From Alphaproteobacteria bacterium (GTDB lineage Bacteria > Pseudomonadota > Alphaproteobacteria > JAOXRX01): a DNA stretch of 64,000 nucleotides. Below the pieces are notes generated by a model. The model saw nothing but the letters and a program-made list of their open reading frames with translations. It searched no databases and had not been told where the DNA came from. The stretch lies in NCBI GenBank assembly GCA_025800285.1, contig JAOXRX010000062.1:2346-66345 (forward strand). Reading direction: 5' to 3'. Made by a program: the position numbers and the translations under genes. This document shows positions 2,628 to 63,691 of this stretch, one piece after another. Within the stretch, counting starts at the first letter, position 1, and each line of letters opens with the position of its first letter.

Positions 2628-2674
2628 GAGTGCTTAAAAATTACTACAATTTATCAAAGAAAGAATCAACAAAA

Positions 2675-4870
2675 ATGAGTACTGAAAATTTAGAATATTT
2701 ATTCGCTCCTAAATCAGTTGCGATGATTGGTGCTTCCAATAGAGAACAATCAATTGGAAGAGTTGTTACAGAAAACCTAATTAAAGGTGAATTCCAAGGG
2801 GAATTAATGTTAGTTAACCCTAAAGGTGCTGAAATCTGTGGTATGCAATCATACCAAAGCATAGATGATTTACCTACAGTTCCAGAATTAGCTCTTATAG
2901 CTATTCGTCCAGATTTTATCCCAGCTACATTAGAGTCTTTAGGTCAAAAAGGAACTAAAGTTGCTCTTATCATCACTGCTGGTTTCGGTGAAATGGGAGA
3001 AGAAGGTAAGAAAAAAGAAGCAGAATTAGTAGAAATCGCTAAAAAATATGGCATGAGAATTGCTGGGCCAAACTGTCTTGGTGTTATGACTCCAGAGGTT
3101 GGACTTGCTGCTGGTTTCGTTATTTGTCCTCCTTTAAAAGGTAATATCGCTTTTGCTGCTCAATCAGGAGCTATCTTAAGTTCAGTTGTTGATTTAGCTA
3201 TGGCTAAAAACATTGGTTTCTCACATCTACTATCTTTAGGTAACATGGCTGATGTTGATTTCGATGATGTTCTAGAACAATTTGGTAACGATGATGCAAC
3301 AGATGCTATAATTATGTATATGGAATCTGTTAAAGAAACAAGAGAATTTATGAAAGCTGCTCGTGAAGCTGCTAAGAAAAAACCTGTTATTTTAATCAAA
3401 TCAGGTAAATCTGATGCTGCTGCAGAAGCTGCTGCTTCTCATACAGGTGCTCTTGCTGGTTCAGATGCTGTTTATGATGCTGCATTCAAAAGAGCTGGTT
3501 TAATTAGAGTTGAAAACCTAAGCGAAATGTTCCAAATTGTTGAAATTATCGCTTCAGGTAAAAAAATTAATAATAACAAATTAACTATTGTTACAAATGG
3601 TGGTGGTATTGGTCTTCTAGCAACAGATGCTTTGATTTCTGATGGTGGTGAACTAACTGAACTAAACCCTGAAACAAAAGCTAAACTTGATGAAGTGCTA
3701 CCTGAAACATGGTCTCATGCAAACCCAATTGATATTATTGGTGATGCTCCAGGAAAAAGATATGAAGATTCTGTAAGAGAAGTATTAGAAGATGAGAACG
3801 ATGACTCAGCTGTTTTAGTTCTTAACTGCCCTCTTGCTGTTTGTGATTCTGCAGATGGTGCAAATGGTGTTGTTAATGCTATTAAAGCTACAAACTCTGA
3901 TAGAGTTGTTTTAGCTAACTGGTTAGGTGCTGGTGCTGCAGAAACTTCAAAGAAAATATTTATGGATAACAAAATTCCTTCATTCAACACTCCTGCTGAA
4001 GCTACAAAAGGATTTATGTATCTTGCTAACTATAAAAAAGATCAAGACTTTTTAAACAGCCCTGCTGTTCCAGTTGCTGATGCTGAATACGATTATGATG
4101 CAGTTAAAGCTATTATAGATGGAGCAATTGCTGAAGGAAGAGAATGGTTATCAGAATATGAAGCTAAGAATGTAGCTCATGCATATTCAATCCCTGTAGC
4201 TAGAACTATTAATGTAGCTACTACAGAAGAAGCTATCGAAGCAGGTGAAGATCTAGGTTATCCTTTAGTGTTAAAAATCTTCTCTCATGATATTACTCAT
4301 AAATCTGATGCTGGTGGTGTTGTTCTAAACATTAAAACTCCAGAACAGTTGAAAACAGAATGTGAAGAAATGCTTGTAAGAGTTGGTAAAAATTGTCCAG
4401 ATGCAAAAATCGAAGGATTCTCAGTTCAAAACTTTGTAAATCTTGATCACTATCACGAATTAATCGTTGGTGTTAATGAAGATGCTCAGTTCGGTCCTGT
4501 TGTTCTATTCGGTAGAGGTGGTACAGCTGTTGAAATCATTAAAGATACAACTTTAGAACTTCCTCCAATGGATATGAATATTGCAACTTCTATGATTAAT
4601 AGAACTAAAGTTTCTGAACTTATGAATGGATACAGAGATGTTCCAGCTGCAAGAAAAGACTTAGTTGCTAAAATTATGGTTAATGTTTGTAAACTAATTG
4701 AAGATTTCCCAGAAATCATTGAATTAGATTTAAACCCTATCTTTGCTAACCACGAAGAAGCTATTGCTCTTGATGCTAGAGTATTAGTAAAACCTTTCAA
4801 TGGTGAAGATAGAAGTGCTAGATTTGCAATTAATCCAAAATCTACATCAAAAGATACAGCTGGTATTTAA
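2675..4870 (+). CDS. Acetate--CoA ligase, ADP-forming, fused alpha/beta (CoA-binding, succinyl-CoA-synthetase-like and ATP-grasp domains). Acyl-CoA synthetase, NDP-forming.
   Basis: N-terminal CoA-binding motif SVAMIGASNREQSIGR. Central HTGALAG-type phospho-His loop (ASHTGALAGSDAVYDAAFKRAG). C-terminal ATP-grasp region. The start is placed at ATG 2675 downstream of the predicted promoter; the alternative GTG at 2630 is in frame. Confidence 0.8.
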   Translation: MSTENLEYLFAPKSVAMIGASNREQSIGRVVTENLIKGEFQGELMLVNPKGAEICGMQSYQSIDDLPTVPELALIAIRPDFIPATLESLGQKGTKVALIITAGFGEMGEEGKKKEAELVEIAKKYGMRIAGPNCLGVMTPEVGLAAGFVICPPLKGNIAFAAQSGAILSSVVDLAMAKNIGFSHLLSLGNMADVDFDDVLEQFGNDDATDAIIMYMESVKETREFMKAAREAAKKKPVILIKSGKSDAAAEAAASHTGALAGSDAVYDAAFKRAGLIRVENLSEMFQIVEIIASGKKINNNKLTIVTNGGGIGLLATDALISDGGELTELNPETKAKLDEVLPETWSHANPIDIIGDAPGKRYEDSVREVLEDENDDSAVLVLNCPLAVCDSADGANGVVNAIKATNSDRVVLANWLGAGAAETSKKIFMDNKIPSFNTPAEATKGFMYLANYKKDQDFLNSPAVPVADAEYDYDAVKAIIDGAIAEGREWLSEYEAKNVAHAYSIPVARTINVATTEEAIEAGEDLGYPLVLKIFSHDITHKSDAGGVVLNIKTPEQLKTECEEMLVRVGKNCPDAKIEGFSVQNFVNLDHYHELIVGVNEDAQFGPVVLFGRGGTAVEIIKDTTLELPPMDMNIATSMINRTKVSELMNGYRDVPAARKDLVAKIMVNVCKLIEDFPEIIELDLNPIFANHEEAIALDARVLVKPFNGEDRSARFAINPKSTSKDTAGI

Positions 4871-51586: not shown

Positions 51587-51684
51587 TTTTCTAACTTTCT
51601 TTTGGTTTTATTTCAAATAGAGTTAATTTATATACTTTTTTTAAGAATAAGTCAAGAGAAAAGACTAAGTATATAAATAAAAAA

Positions 51685-52058
51685 GTAATGGACGGGCTGT
51701 AAGCCGGGTTCTGTCAAAGATAACTATTCATCTAGATTATACATTACTGCATAATTCTTGCAACCTACCTATCGGTTATAAGGTGTGGGAATACACCTAA
51801 AGAACGAATCTTTTCCCGTTAATTTGGTCTTGCTCCTGATAGGGTTTACCTTGCCTGTAACTATCACTAGCACAGCGGTGAGCTCTTACCTCACCTTTTC
51901 ACCATTACCAACAAAAGCTGGCAGTCTATTCTCTGTGGCACTTTCCCGTAGATTACTCCAGCTGGCCGTTAACCAGTATCATATTCCCATGGAGCCCGGA
52001 CTTTCCTCAAGCACTAGGTTTCCCAATTGTACCCGCAGTTATCACCCATCCATTTAAC
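51685..52058 (-). ncRNA. rnpB: RNase P RNA (bacterial type A).
   Basis: The reverse complement carries the universally conserved blocks GGAAAGTCCGGGCTCCAT, GGTGAAAAGGTGAGGTAAGAGCTCACC, AGGAGCAAGACCAAAT and CTAGATGAATAG...GACAGAACCCGGCTTACAG. Its P1 pairs with the 5' end. The ORF at 51785-52057 is antisense to this RNA. Confidence 0.85.
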
Positions 52059-52151
52059 ATAACTTATAACATATATTAAATTATTAGGCAATAAAAAACC
52101 GCCCTACTTTACAATAGGACGGTTTAATTTACTTAAAAAATAATGCTTAAA

Positions 52152-52655
52152 TTATTTTTTAGCTTCTTCTTTTTCAGTTTTTGCTTTTGGTAATTCAACT
52201 ATTGTTATTTTACCACCAGCTTTTTCAACAGCTTTAACAGCTGCTTCAGAAGCTTTTTGAACTTCTAGTGTTAATTTAGCTTTTAGCTCACCTTTTGCAA
52301 GGATTTTAACACCGCCGTTTTCTAATTTATTGATGATACCAGCTTCTTTAAGAGCTTTAGCATCTAATTTAGCACCGTCTTTTATTTTCTTTCTGTCAAC
52401 AAAGTCTTGTAAAACAGTTAGGTTAACAACAGCATATCTAGTTCTATTGATTGGTGAGAAGCCTCTTTTAGCAAGTCTTCTGAACATATTTGTTTGACCA
52501 CCTTCAAAACCATTTATAGACACACCAGATCTTGATTTTTGACCTTTTTGACCTTTACCAACTGTGTGTCCACCTTTACCAGAACCAATACCTCTACCAA
52601 TTCTAGTTCTGTTTTTTCTAGCACCTTGATTATCTCTTAATTCATTAAGTCTCAT
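52152..52655 (-). CDS. rplO: 50S ribosomal protein L15.
   Basis: The sequence is Gly/Lys-rich and L15-like. It lies downstream of rpmD. Confidence 0.9.
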   Translation of the reverse strand: MRLNELRDNQGARKNRTRIGRGIGSGKGGHTVGKGQKGQKSRSGVSINGFEGGQTNMFRRLAKRGFSPINRTRYAVVNLTVLQDFVDRKKIKDGAKLDAKALKEAGIINKLENGGVKILAKGELKAKLTLEVQKASEAAVKAVEKAGGKITIVELPKAKTEKEEAKK

Positions 52656-52656
52656 G

Positions 52657-52845
52657 TTACTTCTCCTCTACGATAGTTACAAGGTGTTGAACTTTATTGA
52701 TCATACCTCTAACAGATGGAGTATCTTCCAAAGTACTTACACGATGCATTTTGTTAAGTTTTAAACCAATCAAAGTAGCTCTTTGATCTTTAGTTCTACC
52801 AATTGGACTTTTAACTTGTTTAACTGTAATTGTTTTCTTAGCCAT
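52657..52845 (-). CDS. rpmD: 50S ribosomal protein L30.
   Basis: 62 aa, L30-like, in the spc operon position. Confidence 0.85.
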
Positions 52846-52847
52846 TT

Positions 52848-53393
52848 TTATGCCTCACTTTCAGAAGCTTCTTCAGCTTCAACTGCATTATTTTTACCAA
52901 GAACTTCACTTACTTTGATACCTCTTCTAGCAGCAACACTTCTTGGGCTTGACATTCTTTTGAAACCTTCAAAAACAGCTTTAACCATGTTATATGGGTT
53001 TGAGCTACCGTTAGATTTCGCAACAACATCTTGTAGACCTAAAGCTTCGAAAACAGCACGAACAGGACCACCAGCGATGATACCAGTACCTGAAGGAGCA
53101 GATCTCATAAATACTTTACCAGCACCAAAGATACCCATTGTATCATGATGTAAAGTTCTACCTTCTCTTAGAGGAACTCTAACCATTGCTTTTTTAGCAT
53201 TTTCTGTAGCTTTTTGGATTGCTGGAGCAACTTCTCTTGCTTTACCAGAACCGTATCCAACTCTACCTTTACCGTCACCAACAACAACTAAAGCAGCGAA
53301 AGACATATTTCTACCACCTTTAACAGTTTTAGCAACACGGTTAATGCTTACTAATTTTTCAATTACTTCTGTATTTTTTTCATTTCTAGCCAT
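52848..53393 (-). CDS. rpsE: 30S ribosomal protein S5.
   Basis: S5 dsRBD and C-terminal domain motifs ([23 protein letters not shown]). Confidence 0.95.
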
Positions 53394-53404
53394 CTTTATG
53401 CTCC

Positions 53405-53761
53405 TTAAAATTTTAAGCCAGCTTCACGAGCAGCGTCTGCAAGAGCTTTAACTCTTCCATGGAATAATAGTCCGCTACGATCGAAAACTACTTCTGAGAT
53501 TTTAGCTTTAACAGCTCTTTCAGCAACTAATTTACCAACAGCTTCTGCTGCCATTTTGTTACCACCATTTTTCAAATTTAACTCTTTTTCTAGAGATGAA
53601 GCTGAAACTAAAGTTTTACCAGCAACATCATCAATGATTTGAGCATAAATGTGCTTAGATGAACGATTAACAGATAGTCTTACTTTACCTTTAGAAACTT
53701 TCTTAAGGTTAGCTCTAGATCTATCTTTTCTTCTTTGTCTTCTATCTTGTATTTTAATCAT
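53405..53761 (-). CDS. rplR: 50S ribosomal protein L18.
   Basis: 118 aa, L18-like ([18 protein letters not shown]). Confidence 0.9.
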
Positions 53762-53932
53762 ATTAAAATCTTTCTTAAATTTAAATTAAACAATAAAAAA
53801 ACCATCCTATTTATTAATAGAATAGCGATTTAATGTCGTGATTTATGAGGAACAAATCTTCCTCGGGATTTTCAAACATTATTTTTATAACATTACTTTT
53901 AAAAAAATGCAAGCTTTTTATTTATACGAAAG

Positions 53933-54799
53933 CTAAAATATTAACAGTGCAATACCCGACAATATTATAGCCGCAGAAAGAGCTCTAATCTTATTGAATT
54001 TGTTTTTAATAAACATATACTCCAACATAAATATAACAACCAACTCTATACTACCAATACCCGCAACCTTACCTATTGGTAAAAACTTATATGAATACAT
54101 TTGAAGAACAACAGCTATAGTTAGCAAGAATCCCGTAAAAACCAATGGAATTGCATGTTTTTTAGATAGATTTAATATTTTTCTTACATTTTTATGCCTA
54201 ACTTTATAAAAAAACATAAAGAATAAAAACATTATAAAATAAATACTCCAAATAAATGATATAACTGACCCTTCTAATATAGCTTTCTTTGATACAACTC
54301 CAATTAAACTACTTAGTATCATAATTAACACAACAAGCAACCAACCAGATCTTCTAAAATGAAATCTTGATATTCTCTTAACTCTGCTTAATTCTAACAA
54401 TACAGTTCCCGAAACAACAACAAACATACCTAATACATTTAATAAAGAAAAAGTCTCTTTAAGAAAAAGAACTCCCATCAATGCCATCAATAATGGAGTA
54501 GATGCATTTAAAACTGTAATGTAAGATATATCAAACTTTTTTAAAGCCCTGTAATAAAGCAAAGTTTTAGATATATTCAATATAGATAATAAAAAAACAT
54601 AGAACAAGAATAGCCCATTAGATAAATAATGAACTTGATTAAAAAACAAAAGAGGTATTGTCAAAAATAACAAAGGAACCAAGTTTCTATACAATCCCAT
54701 CAAAACATAATCTATTTTTAACTTAGATATAATTCTTTTATCATTTACCTTTTGGAAAGCATAAACGAAACCCATTAAAACTGCTAATAAATAAGACAT
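53933..54799 (-). CDS. EamA/DMT-family permease with ten predicted TM helices.
   Basis: Two EamA-like halves with hydrophobic periodicity. Inserted inside the spc ribosomal operon. Confidence 0.7.
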   Translation of the reverse strand: MSYLLAVLMGFVYAFQKVNDKRIISKLKIDYVLMGLYRNLVPLLFLTIPLLFFNQVHYLSNGLFLFYVFLLSILNISKTLLYYRALKKFDISYITVLNASTPLLMALMGVLFLKETFSLLNVLGMFVVVSGTVLLELSRVKRISRFHFRRSGWLLVVLIMILSSLIGVVSKKAILEGSVISFIWSIYFIMFLFFMFFYKVRHKNVRKILNLSKKHAIPLVFTGFLLTIAVVLQMYSYKFLPIGKVAGIGSIELVVIFMLEYMFIKNKFNKIRALSAAIILSGIALLIF

Positions 54800-54825
54800 C
54801 TAAACTCTTTTCTTTAAATCTAAAA

Positions 54826-55896
54826 TTACAATGATATATAATGCTTCTCTTCTAATATAGAATTACACATTTCCCTATCTATTTCCCCTGATATATTTTG
54901 TTGAAAAATAAATTTAAAATCTTTGTAACTAACATTTTGCCCCAACATCCACATACACTTTGAGCACACACACTCTGGGCTCATATCAAAAGCTTCAATT
55001 ATATTTAAATTCATATTCTTTTGCTCTAATATTTTATACTCTGTATAAGACGTAGTTCCTTCTTTACAAGCACTAGCAACAATAACAGGAATTTCTCTTC
55101 TTCTCAAATTTTCTAAAGTATTAACAAAATTATTTGGCAATATTCCAGTTCCTAAAACCATAAATATAACCGCTTTTAATCTATCATCAGATAATTCTTT
55201 TAAAAATTCAATATCCATATCTGGAGTTAAAGATAAACATAAAACACTGTCATCAAACCCCTTTTTAAAATCTGGAGCTATATCATGCCTTACATACCTA
55301 TCATCGTTTCTTTTTGAAGATAATGATGAGAATATATTATTTGTTACAGCAAAGTCATCTTTATTAAAACTAGAAAAAGAATCCAAACTGATTCTAGAAG
55401 TTCTAGTTGCCCTAGTCCCTAATATTATTTTACTCCCGAACACAACAAAAACTCCCGATAGATTTGTTATAGCAACACAAAGTGAATTAATTAAATTAAT
55501 TTTAGCATCTGTTTTAATCTCATATATTGAATTTCTTGCTCCAGTTAATATAATAGGCTTACCTAAGTTCTGAATAACAAATGAAAGAGCTGAAGATAAA
55601 TACCCCATAGTATCTGCCCCTGTTGTAATGACAAAACCATCATATTCATTATATTTTTCTTCAATAATATTAATTATTTTATTCCACTTATCAAGTGTTA
55701 CATTATGAGAAAAACCTTGAGAAACGACTTCTACATCCATAGAAGCTATATGATCAATACCTGGAACATGATTCATTATATCTTTTGCTACATCATTATC
55801 TTCAATCCTACTATCTAAGACAGGACTATCATCAACAGATGGCTTCATTGTTATCACACCACCACAAACCAGAACTAAAACTTTTTTATTAAACAA
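54826..55896 (-). CDS. L-asparaginase/glutaminase family protein (type I-like) with a substituted nucleophile motif.
   Basis: N-terminal VLVLVCGGVITM where AnsA has AYTGGTIGM, and TTGADTMGY where AnsA has HGTDTM. The fold is recognisable but the first catalytic Thr appears replaced by Val. Confidence 0.65.
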   Translation of the reverse strand: MFNKKVLVLVCGGVITMKPSVDDSPVLDSRIEDNDVAKDIMNHVPGIDHIASMDVEVVSQGFSHNVTLDKWNKIINIIEEKYNEYDGFVITTGADTMGYLSSALSFVIQNLGKPIILTGARNSIYEIKTDAKINLINSLCVAITNLSGVFVVFGSKIILGTRATRTSRISLDSFSSFNKDDFAVTNNIFSSLSSKRNDDRYVRHDIAPDFKKGFDDSVLCLSLTPDMDIEFLKELSDDRLKAVIFMVLGTGILPNNFVNTLENLRRREIPVIVASACKEGTTSYTEYKILEQKNMNLNIIEAFDMSPECVCSKCMWMLGQNVSYKDFKFIFQQNISGEIDREMCNSILEEKHYISL

Positions 55897-55992
55897 TTTA
55901 ATCCTCCTGTTTTTTTAAATTATACTTATACAAAATAAATAATTTTGCAAGAAAAAATTATTTTTTATAAAATAAAATGATTAAATAAATAT

Positions 55993-56364
55993 TTAAGATT
56001 TAGAAAAATATATAACTCTGCTACTATCTTTTTTTCTTTTGATGAAAATGCCTTTTTTTCTAAGAGATGACTCTCTGAACTTATCATCTGCATTTTTTAT
56101 GAATTTATCAAATTTTGCTTTATTAGTTGAGGTGTTAGCATTACCAGAAACACCCATTTCTCTAAAGTAAAATTTAACACCACTAGCTATAATAGATTTA
56201 AAATATTTAAAGTCTTTATGAGACATCGATCTACTATGATTATCAAAATGCTCTTCAACAGAGAATCTATCTTCTGACATTTTTATAGTGCTATTTCTCA
56301 GTTTAAAAGTTACATTTTGAATCTGATTATCATAAATTTGAACATGTATAGTTTTATTTTGCAT
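55993..56364 (-). CDS. Hypothetical protein, 123 aa.
   Basis: ORF only. It is the first gene of the cassette inserted between rplF and rplR. Confidence 0.4.
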   Translation of the reverse strand: MQNKTIHVQIYDNQIQNVTFKLRNSTIKMSEDRFSVEEHFDNHSRSMSHKDFKYFKSIIASGVKFYFREMGVSGNANTSTNKAKFDKFIKNADDKFRESSLRKKGIFIKRKKDSSRVIYFSKS

Positions 56365-56534
56365 TTTTACCTCTTATATAACTAATATTAAAAAGCTATA
56401 ATATCATAAAAAAGAGCTTTTTTCAACAAAAGATATGTCATTTAGCATAAAAAATGCAGAAATTAATTTTAGCATCAAACATATGATTTATGATATAAAA
56501 AAACATCCATTAACAGGGATACTCCCTTAAATAT

Positions 56535-56725
56535 AAAAAATATATTTATCTGAATTTTAGATTTGATTTCAACGACCGCGGTGTAAAATAAATTAACCAT
56601 AAAAAAATCCCAACATAATGTCGGGATTTAGTTCTTTGGAAAGAAATATATTTATATAAATTTCAGATTTTGTTTCAATGGCCGTGGTGTAGAATACACT
56701 ACATGAGTTAGCCATTGAAACAAAA
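56535..56725. repeat. Palindromic repeat module. A full element lies at 56640-56725, with a 15-bp perfect stem ttttgtttcaatggc/gccattgaaacaaaa. A truncated half copy lies at 56535-56600. A minus-strand terminator hairpin (aaatccc/gggattt plus T7) sits between them at 56605-56639.
   Basis: About 80% identity over roughly 50 nt between the copies. The hairpin followed by a T-run reads as a terminator for the minus-strand rplF transcript. Confidence 0.6.
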
Positions 56726-56743
56726 AAATAAAATCTATAAAAA

Positions 56744-57274
56744 CTATTTCTTTTTACCTTCTTTTCTGATAATAACTTCATCAGAGTATTTAACACCTTT
56801 ACCTTTATAAGGCTCTGGTTTTCTCCATGCTCTGATATCAGCTGCTACTTGACCAACTTTTTGTTTGTCAGCACCAGATATTACTAATACAGTTGGTTTT
56901 TCAGCTTTAGCTTCAACACCTTCTGGTAACTCATAGTTAACATCATGTGAGAAACCTAAGTTTAGTTTTACAACTCTACCTTGAACTTGAGCTTTATAAC
57001 CAACACCATTGATTTCTAATGTTTTTGAAAAACCTTTTGAAACACCTTCAACAAGATTATTAATTAAAGCTCTTGTTGTTGCCCACATTGGAGTAGGCTT
57101 TGCTTCATTTGCTGGTTTTACAACGATTTCATTTTCGTTTTTCTCAACAACAGCATCAGCATGTATAGGCATTGATAATTGACCTAATTTCCCTTTAACA
57201 GAGATTTCGTTATCAGCAATAGTAACTTCTACACCTTCTGGAATAGCTACAGGACGATTTCCAATTCTTGACAT
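56744..57274 (-). CDS. rplF: 50S ribosomal protein L6.
   Basis: 176 aa, L6-like. Confidence 0.95.
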   Translation of the reverse strand: MSRIGNRPVAIPEGVEVTIADNEISVKGKLGQLSMPIHADAVVEKNENEIVVKPANEAKPTPMWATTRALINNLVEGVSKGFSKTLEINGVGYKAQVQGRVVKLNLGFSHDVNYELPEGVEAKAEKPTVLVISGADKQKVGQVAADIRAWRKPEPYKGKGVKYSDEVIIRKEGKKK

Positions 57275-57288
57275 AATCTTCTACCCTC

Positions 57289-57687
57289 CTAAAATACTTT
57301 TGCTAGAACTTCGCCACCTAAGTGAGCTGCTCTTGCATTGTGGTCACTCATAACACCTTTTGGTGTTGATACGATACAGATACCAAGTCCGTTATAGTAT
57401 TTTGGTAAATCTTTAATTTTTGAGTAAACTCTTCTTGAAGGTTTTGAAACTCTGTGAAGTTCTTTAATAGCACCTTCATCATCAAAGTATTTTAATACTA
57501 CTGAGATTTCATCGAAACCTTTATCATTTTTAGCTACTGAATAATCAGAGATATAACCTTCTTCTTTTAACACTGCTAAAACAGACAGTCTTAGTTTTGA
57601 AGATGGACTTGTAATTGTTTTTAACTTAGCTTGCTGGCCGTTTCTAATACGAGCTAGCATATCGCCTAATGGATCTATAATTGCCAT
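57289..57687 (-). CDS. rpsH: 30S ribosomal protein S8.
   Basis: 132 aa, S8-like. Confidence 0.95.
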   Translation of the reverse strand: MAIIDPLGDMLARIRNGQQAKLKTITSPSSKLRLSVLAVLKEEGYISDYSVAKNDKGFDEISVVLKYFDDEGAIKELHRVSKPSRRVYSKIKDLPKYYNGLGICIVSTPKGVMSDHNARAAHLGGEVLAKVF

Positions 57688-57705
57688 AATTTTGTGCTCC
57701 TTTCC

Positions 57706-58008
57706 TTACCAGCTTGATTTCTTAACACCTGGAAGTAAACCAAGTGAAGCTAATTTTCTTAAACATATACGACACATGCCGAATTTTCTGTAAACAGAAT
57801 GAGGTCTACCGCATATACGACATCTTCTTTGATATCTAATTGGATTTCCATCTTTTGGAAGATTATTTAATTCTTGACAAGCTGCGAATACTTCAGCTGG
57901 ATCACCAGATCTTTTAATTTTAGATTTGATTCTTGATCTTTTAGCTTGTTGCTTAAGAATTTTAACACCTCTTTTTTTATTTTTATCAGCCATACTTACT
58001 TTTGACAT
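57706..58008 (-). CDS. rpsN: 30S ribosomal protein S14 (long, 100-aa form).
   Basis: C-terminal [22 protein letters not shown]. Confidence 0.9.
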
Positions 58009-58017
58009 AGCTACCTC

Positions 58018-58560
58018 CTAATTTTTAAATGGAAGCTTGAACTTTGATAACAAAGCTTTTGCTTCTTCATTTGTTTTTGCAGTTGTACAAATCACAACGT
58101 TTAAACCACGGATTTGATCAACTTTATCAAAATCGATTTCTGGGAAAATTATTTGCTCTTTGATACCCATAGAGTAATTACCTCTACCATCAAAAGCTTT
58201 TCCTGAAATACCACGGAAGTCTCTAACTCTTGGTAAAGAGATAGTAACTAGTCTATCTAAGAAATCATACATTCTGTCTTTTCTTAGAGTAACTTTAGCA
58301 CCGATTGGCATACCTTCTCTAAGTTTGAACTGAGCTATAGATTTTTTAGCTTTAGTAACAACAGCTTTTTGACCAGCAATTAAAGTTAGCTCATCAGCAG
58401 CATTTTGCACTTTTTTCTTATCATTAATTCCTTCACCAACACCCATGTTTAACACGATTTTAGTGATTTTTGGAATTTCCATAACATTTTTATAACCAAA
58501 TTCTTCTTGAAGTTCTTTAGCTATTTTATCGTTATATAATTCTTTTAATCTTGATGTCAT
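58018..58560 (-). CDS. rplE: 50S ribosomal protein L5.
   Basis: 180 aa, L5-like. Confidence 0.95.
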
Positions 58561-58572
58561 TTGCTATTCTCC

Positions 58573-58887
58573 TTAATCAATAACTTCGCCAGATTTTTTT
58601 GCAAATCTCACTTTTTTACCATCTTTAAGAACTTTAAATCCAACTCTTGTTGGTTTTTTAGTTTTTGGATCGATAATAGCAACATTTGAAACATCAATAG
58701 CCATTTCTTTTTCAACGATTCCACCAGCAGACATTGGAGATGGTTTTACATGTTTTTTCACCATGTTTACACCAGCAACAATAACTTTGTTATCTTTTGG
58801 TAGAGACTTAACAACTTCGCCTGTTTTTCCTTTATCTTTACCAGATAAAACAATAACATTATCACCTTTTTTAATTTTAGAAGCCAT
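58573..58887 (-). CDS. rplX: 50S ribosomal protein L24.
   Basis: KOW motif [21 protein letters not shown]. Confidence 0.95.
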
Positions 58888-58888
58888 A

Positions 58889-59263
58889 TTATAGCACCTC
58901 CGAAGCTAGTGAAACGATTTTCATCATACCAGGAACTTCTCTCATTTCTCTTGGGATAGGTCCAAAGATACGAGTACCAATCATTTCTTTTGAGTTTTTA
59001 TTAAGAATAACAGCTGCATTATTATCAAACTTGATAGTTGAGCCATCTTTTCTTTTAATTTCTTTTGTAGTTCTAACTACAACAGCCATAACTACATCAC
59101 CTTTACTTACTTTACCGTTTGGAGCAGCTTCTTTAACAGATGCCATAATGATATCGCCCACACGAGCATATCTTCTATGAGATCCACCTAAAACTTTAAT
59201 GCACTGCACTCGTTTTGCGCCTGAGTTATCAGCAACGGTCAAGTTGGTTTGCATTTGAATCAT
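58889..59263 (-). CDS. rplN: 50S ribosomal protein L14.
   Basis: [28 protein letters not shown]. Confidence 0.95.
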
Positions 59264-59767
59264 ATTTTTATTTCCTAATCATTATTAAATGCACGAATAA
59301 ATGCAGACAGAAAAAAGAAATATTTTGTCAAGCAGTCAAATACCTATATGTATGTGACACTTGCCAAAACTTTTTTTGTATACATTTCTCGCACATTTTC
59401 TAACGATTAACCATGCAAAAATTGCAAACAAAATTCTTTTCAGCGAACACATTTTTAAACTAGTCTCTAATAACAATTAACCTTTCTTAGTTAGTTTTAA
59501 AAATATTTATAGATTATCTTAGAGTAATTCTAAAAAAATCTAACTTGTTGCCATTTTAAGGTTGACAAAACCTTTATTTTTTTCAAAAAAAGAATCTTAA
59601 GAAAAACCAGCTACAACTTAAATTGCACGATGTTAATCTTATTATTCTTTTATTATCAATGACTTAAGTAAGATGAAAACCTCACAAAAACCATCTATTT
59701 GATTAAAGAAAATATACTATATTTTAGATTAAAAGTCAAGAGAAATACAAAATTATATTTAGAGCGC

Positions 59768-60445
59768 CTAAGGATATATATTAGAAGAAATAGAGCTTTT
59801 TGAAGTTACAAGTAAATGATCTTTTGAATACTTTGATATATATTTTAATGCTAATTTTACTACATCAGAATCACTATCTTTTAACTTTTGCTTTACAGCT
59901 AAAAAAACTCTTTCATCATTTATCTCTGATGATAAAGATTTTAATGCAGACTCTCTAACAAAAAAATCATCATCATTTAAACTATTCAAAAGAGCTTCTT
60001 TAATATTTTTTCTATGAGATACAGGAGATAAAGCTTGTACTATATTTCTTCTTACATCTGCATAAGAGAATTCATCCCCTAATTCTTGCAGTAAACATTT
60101 TTGGACATTTTCATTATTTACATTATAAGAAAGAGATTTTATTGCAGCTCTCCTTATAAGAAAATCATCATGCCCTGCATTATACTTAATTTTATCAAAG
60201 ATTTCTTTTTCACAACTCACTGGCGATAAAGCTATTAAAGCACACTCAAGCATATGAGAAGAAGATGTTTCATCAACAATCTTAATAAGAGCATCTCTAA
60301 TCTCTCTATTATCTTTAACAAATAAAGATAATTCAGCAAATAACTCGTTTCTTTTTTCAGGAAAAAATATAGGATTTATGCTTTTTAACCTCTGCAGAAG
60401 GTGCTTGTGTTTATTTTTATCATTTTTCAATACTCTCTCCTCCAT
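59768..60445 (-). CDS. HEAT-repeat (PBS-lyase-type) protein, about 225 aa.
   Basis: Repeated helical pairs of the pattern ...R..AI.AL... The start is set at MEERV, which has RBS AAGGAGA; the longer ORF extends to 60496. Confidence 0.55.
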   Translation of the reverse strand: MEERVLKNDKNKHKHLLQRLKSINPIFFPEKRNELFAELSLFVKDNREIRDALIKIVDETSSSHMLECALIALSPVSCEKEIFDKIKYNAGHDDFLIRRAAIKSLSYNVNNENVQKCLLQELGDEFSYADVRRNIVQALSPVSHRKNIKEALLNSLNDDDFFVRESALKSLSSEINDERVFLAVKQKLKDSDSDVVKLALKYISKYSKDHLLVTSKSSISSNIYP

Positions 60446-60516
60446 AAAAATCTCCTTAATAAACATTATAATAACATAAAAGAATAAAATTTTCAAATGT
60501 CTAATATTAAAGCATT

Positions 60517-61467
60517 CTAAGCCTTATTAAGCAAAGCAGAGTGAAGCATTAAGTTAACCAAGTTTCTTTTATTTATTCCAAAAGATTTAGACTGACATGG
60601 TAAATCACTAGTATTTGTCATCCCAGGCAATGTATTAACTTCTAATACATAAAACCTACCCTCTTCTGTAAGTATAAAATCAACTCTTGAAAATCCCGAG
60701 CAGCTTAACTCTTTAAAAGCTTTTACAGCTATACTCTTTATTTCATTACTTATAAAGCTATCTATATTTGCTGGAGATGTATGTATTAAAGCTCCTTCTG
60801 TATATTTATTATTATAATCATAATTACCATTTTTAACTTCAACCTCTAATATATCAGTTGCAAAAATATGATTATTTAACTGCAAAACACCTACAGTTAA
60901 CTCTCTACCAATTAATAACTCTTCTATTATAGGCTTAGAATTGCAATTCTCCACCTCTTTTAATATAGTTTGCAATTCTTGTTTATTATTAGCTACACCA
61001 GAAGCAAGGCTTGAGCCCTGATCTATAGGCTTACAAAAAACAGGATAATTTATCTGACTAGAGTCAGAATATGACTTAGGAACTAAAACACCTGCTTTAT
61101 TTAAATGTTTTTTAGTCTTCTCTTTATTCATACATAAAGAACTAGCTAATACTCCTGAGCCTGTGTAAGGAATTCCAATATTTTCTAGAATTGATTGAAT
61201 ATAACCATCTTCACCATATGTTCCGTGTAATGCAAGAAAAGCTATATCTATTTCAAAGCATTTGAGTTCACTTTTATAATCACCTTTTAAATCAACTATA
61301 AAAGAATTATAATACCCTAAACCTTTAAGAGCCTCATAACAATTCTCACCACTTTTAAGAGAAACTTTTCTTTCTCTTGATTTTCCACCACATATTACCG
61401 CTATTTTTGCATTTTTACTTATATCATTTAAATTATTTATAACATTTAAAAGTAATTCTTTTTCCAT
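60517..61467 (-). CDS. ddl: D-alanine--D-alanine ligase.
   Basis: ATP-grasp Ddl motifs (HGTYGEDG, NTLPGMT), 316 aa. RBS AAGGAGA. Confidence 0.85.
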   Translation of the reverse strand: MEKELLLNVINNLNDISKNAKIAVICGGKSRERKVSLKSGENCYEALKGLGYYNSFIVDLKGDYKSELKCFEIDIAFLALHGTYGEDGYIQSILENIGIPYTGSGVLASSLCMNKEKTKKHLNKAGVLVPKSYSDSSQINYPVFCKPIDQGSSLASGVANNKQELQTILKEVENCNSKPIIEELLIGRELTVGVLQLNNHIFATDILEVEVKNGNYDYNNKYTEGALIHTSPANIDSFISNEIKSIAVKAFKELSCSGFSRVDFILTEEGRFYVLEVNTLPGMTNTSDLPCQSKSFGINKRNLVNLMLHSALLNKA

Positions 61468-61605
61468 ATAAAATCTCCTTAATAAATATTAATAACATTA
61501 TATTAATAACTTTTTTAAATTCAATAATAAAAAAATAAATAAATTATTTATTGTCGCGGAGATGTATTAACTTCATAATAAAAAATTATATAGACTAAAT
61601 ATAAA

Positions 61606-61640
61606 AAAAGCCCCGCTATCGCTGAGGCTTTTATTATTTG
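61606..61640 (-). terminator. Possible terminator downstream of rpsQ. On the minus strand it reads hairpin aagcc..ggctt followed by T7.
   Basis: Short stem with flanking A- and T-runs. Confidence 0.3.
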
Positions 61641-61776
61641 TAATATCTAAAAAAAGTTTCTAACTTAATTTATTAAGTAATTTTTAAATTGATTTAGACT
61701 GTGAAGCGAGCCCTTGCCTATACATTAAAGTATTGCTATGAGGGTAAGCTTCACAAAAATAAATCAAGAATAAAAA

Positions 61777-62004
61777 CTATTTAATAACTTTAAACTTTTT
61801 CTTTTTAGAAATTGGAGCACATTCTTCAATTCTAACAACATCTCCCACTTTACATGAATTATCTTCATCGTGAGCAGAATATTTTTTAGATTTCTTAACG
61901 AACTTCTTGTATAAAGGATGCATAACTTGTCTAGTTACTAGAACTGTTACTGTTTTATCAGCTTTGTCTGATACAACTTCTCCTTGTAGTATTCTTTTAG
62001 GCAT
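61777..62004 (-). CDS. rpsQ: 30S ribosomal protein S17.
   Basis: 75 aa, S17-like ([18 protein letters not shown]). Confidence 0.95.
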
Positions 62005-62198
62005 TATTTTTCACCTTTCTTTTCTGATAATACTGTTTTGATTTTTGCTACAGTTTTTTTAACTTCGCTCATTCTAGCAGTATTTTCAAGTTGGCCACTA
62101 GCTTTTTGGAATCTAAGATTGAAAAGTTCTTTTTTCAAAGAAACGATTTCCGCTTTTAATTCATCGATGCTTTTAGCTCTAATATCTGTAATTTTCAT
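62004..62198 (-). CDS. rpmC: 50S ribosomal protein L29.
   Basis: 64 aa, L29-like. Confidence 0.9.
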
Positions 62199-62213
62199 TT
62201 TTAAATTCCCTTT

Positions 62214-62624
62214 CTAGTGGTTTCTAGTTATGAATTTAGTGTTAACAGGAAGTTTAGCAGAAGCTAAAGCAAAAGCTTCTCTTGCGATTTCTTCTTCAAC
62301 ACCGTCTAATTCAAACATAACTCTTCCAGGTTTAACTCTAGCTACCCAATGATCTACAGAACCCTTACCTTTACCTTGTCTAACCTCTAAAGGTTTTTTA
62401 GTCACAGGAACATCTGGGAAGATTCTAATCCATAATCTACCTTTTCTTTTCATGTGTCTAGTAATAGCTCTTCTAGCAGCCTCGATTTGTCTTGAAGTAA
62501 TTCTCTCAGGAGAAAGTGCTTTAAGACCATAAGCCCCAAAGTTCAGAGTAGTTCCACCTTTAGCGTTACCATGAATTCTACCTTTATGAGCTTTTTTAAA
62601 TTTAGTTCTTTTTGGTTGTAACAT
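62214..62624 (-). CDS. rplP: 50S ribosomal protein L16.
   Basis: [16 protein letters not shown]. Confidence 0.95.
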
Positions 62625-62633
62625 TTACTTCTC

Positions 62634-63314
62634 CTATCTTACTTTGCTATTTTTCATAGCACGATTGTCTCTAGCTTGAGGGTTATGTTCCATAACTTCA
62701 CCTTTGAAAACCCAAACTTTAACACCGATGATACCGTATGTTGTTAAAGCTTCTGAGAAACCATAGTCAATATCAGCTCTTAGAGTAGCTAGAGGAACTC
62801 TACCTTCTCTGTACCATTCTGTTCTAGCAATCTCAGCACCGCCAAGTCTACCTGCACAGTTAATTCTGATACCACCAACACCTAACCTCATCGCTGACTG
62901 TTGAGCTCTTTTCATAGCTCTTCTGAAAGAAACTCTTCTTTCAAGTTGGTTAGCAATTGTTTCAGATATAAGTTGAGCATCTGTTTCTGGTTTTCTGATT
63001 TCGATAATGTTTAGAGCTACAGGAGTTCCAAATTTCTTAACGATTTTCTTTTTAAGAGTTTCGATATCTGCACCTTTTTTACCGATAATAATACCAGGTC
63101 TTGAAGTGTGGATATTTACTTTAACTTTATCAGCTGCTCTTTCGATTACAACTCTAGAAACACCAGCTTGCTTAAGTTCTTTTTTGATAAATTTTCTTAG
63201 CTCTAAGTCTTGGTGAATTTTATCTGCATAGTCTTCTTTACCTGCATACCAAAGACTTTCCCAAGTTCTGTTGATACCAAGTCTAAGACCGATTGGATTT
63301 ACTTTTTGTCCCAT
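62634..63314 (-). CDS. rpsC: 30S ribosomal protein S3.
   Basis: [18 protein letters not shown]. Confidence 0.95.
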
Positions 63315-63691
63315 TATTTTTTCTCCTCAACTTCTTTCACAACAATAGTAAGATTACTGAATGGTTTCAAAATTCTAGCACCACGACCTTTAGCTCTTGC
63401 TCTAAATCTTTTCATAACGATAGATTTACCAACGAAAGCTTCGCTCACGATTAATTTATCAACATTTAAGTTGTGATTGTTTTCCGCATTAGCAATAGCT
63501 GAGTTTAAAACAGCTTTTACTTCATTTGCAACTCTTCTTTTACAGAAGTCAAGAGCTCTTAAAGCTTCAGCGACATTTTTACCTCTAATTAAAGCTGCTA
63601 CTAAGTTCATTTTTCTTGGGCTAGTTCTAATGTGTTTAGCAAAAGCTCTAGCTTCATTTTTCTCTACTCTTGGAGCATTTGTTTTCGCCAT
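63314..63691 (-). CDS. rplV: 50S ribosomal protein L22.
   Basis: 125 aa, L22-like. Confidence 0.9.

Follow-up and report, generated by a model that had tools for sequence, protein, structure and literature searches.

Bacterial-type asparaginases have been heavily studied, both as drugs and as model enzymes, and their genes can form catabolic operons together with permease genes (the ansP-ansA type, e.g., ansPAB of Rhizobium etli). Here, we describe a gene pair that resembles these operons, in that an asparaginase-family gene and a transporter gene are linked in one operon, but differs from them in both partners: while operons of the ansP-ansA type use an asparagine permease of the APC family and an active enzyme, this pair combines a DMT/EamA transporter with an asparaginase homolog in which the catalytic residues have been replaced. 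The pair lies, next to a third open reading frame (ORF), between the ribosomal protein genes rplF and rplR, in a stretch of 64,000 nucleotides (hereafter, the window) from a metagenome-assembled genome (MAG) deposited as 'Alphaproteobacteria bacterium'.

Transporters of the EamA/DMT type that are known to move small metabolites include (i) the Escherichia coli exporters EamA/YdeD and RhtA; and (ii) the S-adenosylmethionine importer of Rickettsia. Regarding the asparaginases, positions T12, T89, D90 and K162 of E. coli AnsB (EcAII) correspond, in the numbering of the type I enzyme (EcAI), to T14, T91, D92 and K163, respectively. The established catalytic and binding residues of these enzymes are T12, Y25, T89, D90 and K162 (PMC8948990). 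Unless otherwise indicated, EcAII numbering is used for alignment columns.

On the minus strand of the window, the ORF list gives the order rplN, rplX, rplE, rpsN, rpsH, rplF, a 123-aa ORF, a 356-aa ORF, a 288-aa ORF, rplR, rpsE, rpmD and rplO, and the span 53933-56364 is precisely that of the three inserted ORFs. Their position between rplF and rplR is, hence, the one given in an initial annotation of this DNA, which was made by a model from the sequence alone. The corresponding NCBI entries, all three from the same MAG, are labelled as follows: (i) MCV6599521 (123 aa), hypothetical protein; (ii) MCV6599520 (356 aa), asparaginase domain-containing protein; and (iii) MCV6599519 (288 aa), DMT family transporter.

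Fold and catalytic residues of the asparaginase-like protein

The 356-aa protein matches both domains of the family in Pfam: Asparaginase N (PF00710, 2e-43) and Asparaginase C (PF17763, 4e-19). Its AlphaFold2 model, for which a 119-sequence alignment was used as input, reached a predicted local distance difference test (pLDDT) of 90.7 and a predicted template modelling score (pTM) of 0.92. When this model was compared with the PDB by means of Foldseek, the top matches were type I asparaginases from Thermococcus and Pyrococcus, GatD and E. coli AnsA, with template modelling (TM) scores of 0.75-0.88. It is a cytoplasmic protein in which both domains of the type I L-asparaginase fold are complete, in agreement with the statement of the initial annotation that the fold landmarks are kept. 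The curated models of NCBIfam were matched below their thresholds: 186.9 bits versus a cutoff of 260.5 for type I asparaginase (TIGR00519), and 145.4 versus 376 for PRK09461. As to membership of the type I L-asparaginases, then, the fold and D90 are present in the protein, while T12, T89, K162 and a curated score above the cutoff are lacking.

For the residue alignment, the 119 closest homologs (three members of the clade that includes the window protein, and 116 others) were aligned with E. coli AnsA and AnsB; the AnsA segment was checked against the PDB alignment. In the T12 column, the window protein and its two closest relatives carry V, A and V, while the other homologs have T (88 sequences), S (one sequence) or are truncated at the N-terminus. 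The T89 column reads A in all three clade members versus T in 116/116 of the other homologs, Thr being also the residue of the PDB enzymes. Likewise, the K162 column reads R in the whole clade versus K in 116/116. On the other hand, S58 is retained in the clade, as in 116/116 elsewhere, and so is D90, a column in which the remaining homologs have either D (67 sequences) or N (49 sequences). In the numbering of the window protein, these positions are V14 (T12), A94 in TGADT (T89), R165 in RATR (K162), D95 (D90) and S63 (S58). Seven more positions that are otherwise nearly invariant have changed only in the clade (D62F, Q121R, P123S, G226D, Q276A/R, G290 and L314), and several of the clade-specific replacements are invariant within it, i.e., F62, H64, R121, S123 and R165.

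The motifs GGVITM and TTGADTMGY, quoted in the initial annotation, do occur in the 356-aa protein, and the first catalytic Thr indeed reads Val: this Val occupies the T12 column, where neither a gap nor a shift is seen, and the first motif is aligned without a gap (KVLVLVCGGVITM versus KILLLFCGGTISM). A nucleophile shifted along the chain was considered as well and rejected, given that the Thr of GGVITM pairs with the canonical Ser/Ala of GGTISM/GGTIAM in an ungapped block. The alignment to AnsA and AnsB, which the annotation had itself proposed, leaves only D90 out of Thr12, Thr89, Asp90 and Lys162. Its suggestion of a pseudo-enzyme is strengthened by this result, since only one of the four catalytic residues is left and two of the losses (T89A and K162R) had gone unnoticed.

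In comparison with the type I L-asparaginases (E. coli AnsA; the Pyrococcus/Thermococcus structures 2p2d, 1wls and 5ot0), the 356-aa protein shares the two-domain fold, at the TM scores given above, together with S58, D90, YDGFVI, GKP and W/F core residues. Unlike them, it has V/A/R at T12/T89/K162 and the seven further changes just listed, and its nearest canonical homologs are only 40-44% identical to it. S58 and D90, which bind the amino-acid part of the substrate, are retained while the residues responsible for the chemistry are replaced, a pattern which would be the usual signature of a binding-only pseudo-enzyme. From these residues, hydrolysis of asparagine or glutamine by the classical mechanism appears unlikely.

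A relevant precedent among the Foldseek matches is provided by guinea-pig asparaginase 1, whose variants T19A, T116A and K188M (5dnc, 5dnd and 5dne) are held in the PDB, deposited as Asn-bound active site mutants. From the numbering of the family, T19, T116 and K188 would be the counterparts of T12, T89 and K162. By analogy, this suggests that substitutions at the three catalytic positions can leave asparagine binding intact. Nevertheless, the guinea-pig mutants are engineered single changes in an active enzyme, while here the three changes occur together, are natural and are common to three lineages. In the literature searched, neither a conserved natural asparaginase lacking the catalytic threonines and the lysine nor a non-catalytic member of the bacterial-type asparaginase fold was found.

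As a separate observation from the same alignment, 49 of the 116 type I homologs (e.g., among P0007-P0053) carry GTNT instead of GTDT, that is, D90N; the named example that was checked, P0032, comes from a Magasanikbacteria MAG. In type I homologs, D90N co-varies with N248D and with a Tyr-to-Asn change at the E283 column. These homologs are a second atypical clade, which might have altered chemistry.

The linked transporter and conservation of the pair

The 288-aa protein matches Pfam EamA (PF00892, 4.6e-24) in two stretches, and a hydropathy scan gave about 9-10 hydrophobic segments. It has, therefore, the two EamA repeats and the about 10 transmembrane segments by which DMT/EamA proteins are recognised, as YdeD, RhtA and the Rickettsia importer do. 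Unlike these characterised transporters, it is highly divergent and reaches no subfamily model, and its only relatives at E<=1e-5 are partner-linked orthologs. Among the NCBIfam models, no characterised subfamily or substrate model was reached: the best match, TIGR03340, scored 43 bits versus a cutoff of 288, and all matches were far under their cutoffs. A word-index search of 5.8 billion proteins at E<=1e-5 returned only one complete ortholog besides the protein itself; a second, cut-off copy is located in contig L001.

Among the same 5.8 billion proteins, the asparaginase-like protein has only two close relatives, P0002 and P0003, at 61-62% identity; the next ones (P0004-6) are 40-44% identical and have T/T/D/K intact. 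The clade of asparaginases without the catalytic residues thus comprises three members from three lineages, represented by the window and by contigs L001 and L002. The JGI gene call of P0003 was 16 codons short and hid CGGVITM; the full ORF (L002 4255-5343) begins MYNKKVLIISCGGVITM, which restores the first strand and the motif. In the GTDB species representatives, a scan showed nothing above 40% identity and no further clade member; the JGI metagenome collection, scanned twice, likewise yielded no further pair or clade member.

In both L001 and L002, an EamA ortholog (55% identity) lies directly 3' of the asparaginase-like gene, the gap being 11 bp in L001, 9 bp in L002 and 26 bp in the window. 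The asparaginase-like ORF is intact in all three loci, and so is the EamA ORF in L002 and the window, while in L001 the latter is truncated by the end of the contig. The flanking genes differ: pheS and an alpha/beta hydrolase gene in L001; an HMGL-like gene and pntAB in L002. Neither of the canonical relatives P0004 and P0007 has an EamA neighbour. The coupling of the asparaginase homolog to the EamA gene, as initially annotated, consequently holds in all three lineages, with tight spacing. Protein identity among the lineages is down to 55-62%, with 76% of alignment columns conserved, and the pairwise ratios of nonsynonymous to synonymous substitution rates (dN/dS) are 0.22-0.28 (asparaginase-like gene) and 0.22 (EamA gene), rough values owing to the saturation of dS (>1.2). 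With respect to outgroups, the clade shows 33-34% identity versus 39-41% for the canonical sister group.

Because of the conserved linkage, the exclusivity and the dN/dS values across three lineages, the functional unit is the pair and not the trio; it is maintained by purifying selection and moves as a unit, with a different chromosomal site in each lineage. The pair occurs only in a small alphaproteobacterial lineage, which has been poorly sampled. In the literature searched, no report of an asparaginase-EamA pairing was found.

Strain-level variation of the rplF-rplR spacer

Four contigs with an identical L6 were compared: L085 (the window strain), L086, L087 and L088. Their gene orders are as follows: (i) in L085, L6, orphan (the 123-aa ORF), asparaginase-like gene, EamA gene and L18; (ii) in L086 and L087, L6, a 218/221-aa protein, orphan and L18; and (iii) in L088, the same order as in L086 and L087 until the orphan, after which the contig ends. 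The flanks are 98-99% identical between the window and the sister strains (blastn). Two scars remain in L086 and L087: (i) an internal piece of the asparaginase-like gene, 114 bp long and degraded, with indels and stops and 82% identity, which corresponds to window 55233-55346; and (ii) the last 80 bp of the EamA gene (98% identity), from window 54013. In view of these scars, the pair was ancestral at the site and has been deleted in the sister strains; it is not, as might be thought from the initial annotation, a fixed feature of the operon. In short, the pair is an accessory element whose presence varies between strains; it is dispensable and sits, in the window strain, in a hypervariable spacer by which the spc cluster is split between rplF and rplR.

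The 123-aa ORF has no significant match to any Pfam family, and in a phmmer search of 1.84 billion representatives only two credible relatives appeared: P0125, an ortholog with 81% identity, and P0128, a 218-aa protein (27% identity) that contains two tandem copies of the orphan domain of ~95 aa. In the sister strains, the 218/221-aa gene is situated between rplF and the orphan (L086 5237-5902; L087 846-1502), where the window has 79 bp. The 218/221-aa protein and the orphan constitute a lineage-specific paralog family. An anti-phage defence island was considered as well and rejected, as neither the three cassette proteins nor the 221-aa paralog had a match in PADLOC. In another contig, L090, whose ribosomal genes are 97% identical to those of the window at the nucleotide level, the orphan lies directly upstream of rplR, with no pair. 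In the orphan ortholog of L090 (305-712), codon 16 is an in-frame TAA and the C-terminus differs, which points either to a decaying gene or to a functional ORF that begins at Met29.

The initial annotation had grouped the three genes as a trio. This grouping did not survive the comparison, since the orphan is present with or without the pair and is absent beside the pair in L001 and L002. The orphan is, then, an independent and older resident of the rplF-rplR spacer.

Predicted transcription signals

Membership of the spc operon was assessed from predicted signals and from the strains. In three strains, terminator-like hairpins follow rplF, and promoter-like sites precede both the orphan and rplR (Table 1); the pair is absent in the sisters. 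In L090, 4 terminator-like sites were counted versus 0.2 expected. In the EamA-rplR spacer, the following elements can be distinguished: (i) TTGCAT (53912-53907) and TATAAA (53889-53884), separated by 17 nt and read by eye; and (ii) an AU-rich hairpin (about 53826-53802) followed by U7, about 30 nt before the rplR ATG. This spacer may represent a new promoter and a leader or attenuator for a separate rplR-rpsE-rpmD-rplO unit. A permissive Rfam search for known RNA elements in the spacers gave only a chance match to a long non-coding RNA.

The structured spacer after the rplF stop also contains a tandem 61-nt direct repeat, present in the window in two copies that are 80% identical (56535-56595 and 56641-56701). 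Within the long hairpin just after the rplF stop, there is a perfect 15-bp inverted repeat or stem (56668-56682 / 56711-56725). These repeats may be a scar resembling a miniature inverted-repeat transposable element or an RNA element.

Given that terminator-like hairpins and promoter-like sites bound the spacer, expression of the cassette at ribosomal-protein levels, as the initial annotation had supposed, is unlikely, and the pair is probably not part of the ribosomal operon. A literature search for insertions in the spc operon yielded nothing relevant.

Proposed role and alternative explanations

The reading that we tentatively favour, possible though in our judgement a little short of probable, is that the 356-aa protein is a non-hydrolytic, ligand-binding protein with an asparaginase fold that works with a dedicated DMT transporter, the pair being expressed apart from the ribosomal operon. 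In such a scheme, (i) the asparaginase-like protein would no longer hydrolyse asparagine or glutamine; (ii) according to synteny and residue patterns, it would act as a binding-only sensor, adaptor or substrate-capture partner of the EamA protein; (iii) the transporter would move an amino acid or a related small metabolite; and (iv) with the spacer bounded by terminator- and promoter-like signals, the pair would be expressed on its own and would be dispensable. According to a more specific proposal, which we consider unlikely, a natural family of pseudo-asparaginases would serve a DMT transporter as its dedicated cytoplasmic subunit for ligand binding or gating. The result would be a two-component small-metabolite transporter of a type for which no earlier description was found.

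Several points weigh against the favoured reading. In principle, the Arg at K162 and the His at Q59 might allow for a different chemistry. The evidence for a partner role consists of synteny and residue patterns; with only three known lineages, the co-occurrence statistics are thin, and the saturation of dS makes the estimates of selection rough. The promoter and terminator calls are matches to consensus sequences, and, overall, no more promoters were counted than in shuffled sequence. Lastly, the loss of the pair in close relatives shows that it is non-essential and could be read as ongoing decay.

In the strongest of the alternatives, which we nevertheless consider rather unlikely, the protein would still be an enzyme, with altered chemistry or substrate, using, for instance, His64, Ser63, Asp95, Arg165 or a bound water, and the EamA protein would take up the substrate or expel the product of this enzyme. 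This corresponds to the amide processing and export module of the initial annotation. The retention of the pocket residues S58 and D90 and the purifying selection on the gene fit this possibility, and the invariant clade-specific replacements (H64, R121, S123, R165 and F62) could mark a remodelled active site. In addition, single 'catalytically deficient' asparaginase variants can keep residual activity (PMC8948990). Against it, both threonines and the lysine are replaced together, while none of the 116 other homologs shows even one of these changes. Moreover, we know of no enzyme with an asparaginase fold that works without the Thr nucleophile. That the pair is instead a decaying relic with no current function, being lost from a shrinking AT-rich genome, would be in accordance with its deletion, scars included, from sister strains with nearly identical flanks and with the greater divergence of the clade from the outgroups than that of the canonical sister group. 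We regard it as improbable, since the ORFs have stayed intact (apart from the EamA gene of L001, cut by the contig end) despite their divergence, the tight spacing of the pair is kept, dN/dS is about 0.2-0.3 with most alignment columns conserved, and a strong Shine-Dalgarno sequence precedes the asparaginase-like gene.

An equally improbable explanation, close to the initial annotation, is that the three genes form one module co-transcribed in the spc operon at ribosomal-protein levels. It is true that all three are on the same strand, between rplF and rplR; but the terminator-like hairpins 3' of rplF and the promoter-like sites 5' of the orphan and of rplR speak against it. Moreover, the orphan is found in strains devoid of the pair, the pair is found in lineages where neither the orphan nor any ribosomal gene accompanies it, and the presence of the pair varies among nearly identical strains. 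A role as a GatD-like subunit of a tRNA-dependent amidotransferase was also considered, since GatD structures rank high in the fold comparison and the NCBIfam GatD models give 163 bits. Nonetheless, this score is far below the cutoffs (310-324), and the match begins at GatD position 63-77, the N-terminal domain being absent. GatD also needs the same Thr/Thr/Asp/Lys, of which only the Asp is left here, and the window encodes bacterial GatA and GatB, with no gatE seen. With GatCAB present, a GatD-like role is unnecessary, and the residue losses rule it out anyway; this role was consequently rejected as highly improbable.

If the favoured reading were true, the asparaginase fold would gain a new role, that of binding only, in association with a private DMT transporter, and this would point to an accessory subunit of a new kind in DMT transporters; the pairing of a pseudo-enzyme with a transporter is apparently undescribed. 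In addition, the normally rigid S10-spc cluster can split into several units and harbours, in this lineage, a site where genes are gained and lost between strains. In practical terms, the impact is modest, as the family is tiny, comes from metagenome assemblies only and is dispensable in close relatives.

Features of the locus and genomic context

Table 1. Coordinates of the genes and predicted signals in and around the rplF-rplR spacer (window positions).
Feature	Position	Strand	Remarks
rplF (L6), upstream flank	56744-57274	minus	Protein identical in sister strains
Structured spacer after rplF stop	56535-56745	minus	z = -4.3; 61-nt tandem repeat and long hairpin
Terminator-like hairpin with T-run, 3' of rplF	56605-56629	minus	Conserved in L086; L090 has two at the same place
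Promoter-like TTGAAA-17-TATTAT with extended TG, upstream of orphan	56398-56426	minus	Conserved in L086 and L090
123-aa ORF (orphan), lineage-specific spacer resident	55993-56364	minus	ORF list, Pfam and homolog searches
AGGAGG Shine-Dalgarno, 6 nt 5' of the asparaginase-like TTG start	55903-55908	minus	Read from the sequence
356-aa asparaginase-like gene, TTG start	54826-55896	minus	NCBI MCV6599520.1
288-aa EamA/DMT transporter gene	53933-54799	minus	26 bp downstream of the asparaginase-like gene
EamA-rplR spacer	53762-53932	minus	93-98% identical in strains without the pair
rplR (L18), downstream flank	53405-53761	minus	ORF list

The S10-spc cluster of the window (51684-63691, also in L085) is broken at several points. 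After S17, ddl (60517-61467) and a HEAT-repeat gene (59768-60496) stand before L14, in a second hypervariable spacer whose flanks are 99% identical to those of L086. In L086, this S17-L14 spacer (1231-1970) is devoid of ddl and has the HEAT gene only, with ~72% nucleotide identity to that of the window. The HEAT protein of the window has a weak match to HEAT-ARM in PADLOC. The cluster ends after rplO, where the gene for RNase P RNA (51684-52053) is found in place of secY, adk and rpoA.

The GC content of the window is about 30% (mean 0.304) and that of the cassette 0.25-0.29, below that of the ribosomal genes. A possible horizontal transfer was also considered on the grounds of composition, which turned out to be uninformative, as the GC content of the cassette is close to the window mean. 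The relatives of ribosomal protein S1 are 99% and then 83-86% identical, after which identity falls to ~60-63% with other Alphaproteobacteria; this drop indicates a deep, poorly sampled lineage. The window also encodes GatA, GatB, GltX, MutS, glycogen enzymes and an ADP-forming acetyl-CoA synthetase. The latter, an ADP-forming acetate-CoA ligase of the archaeal/anaerobe type (2630-4870), is accompanied by glgX and malQ, and the ligase and the glycogen genes hint at a fermentative or host-associated lifestyle.

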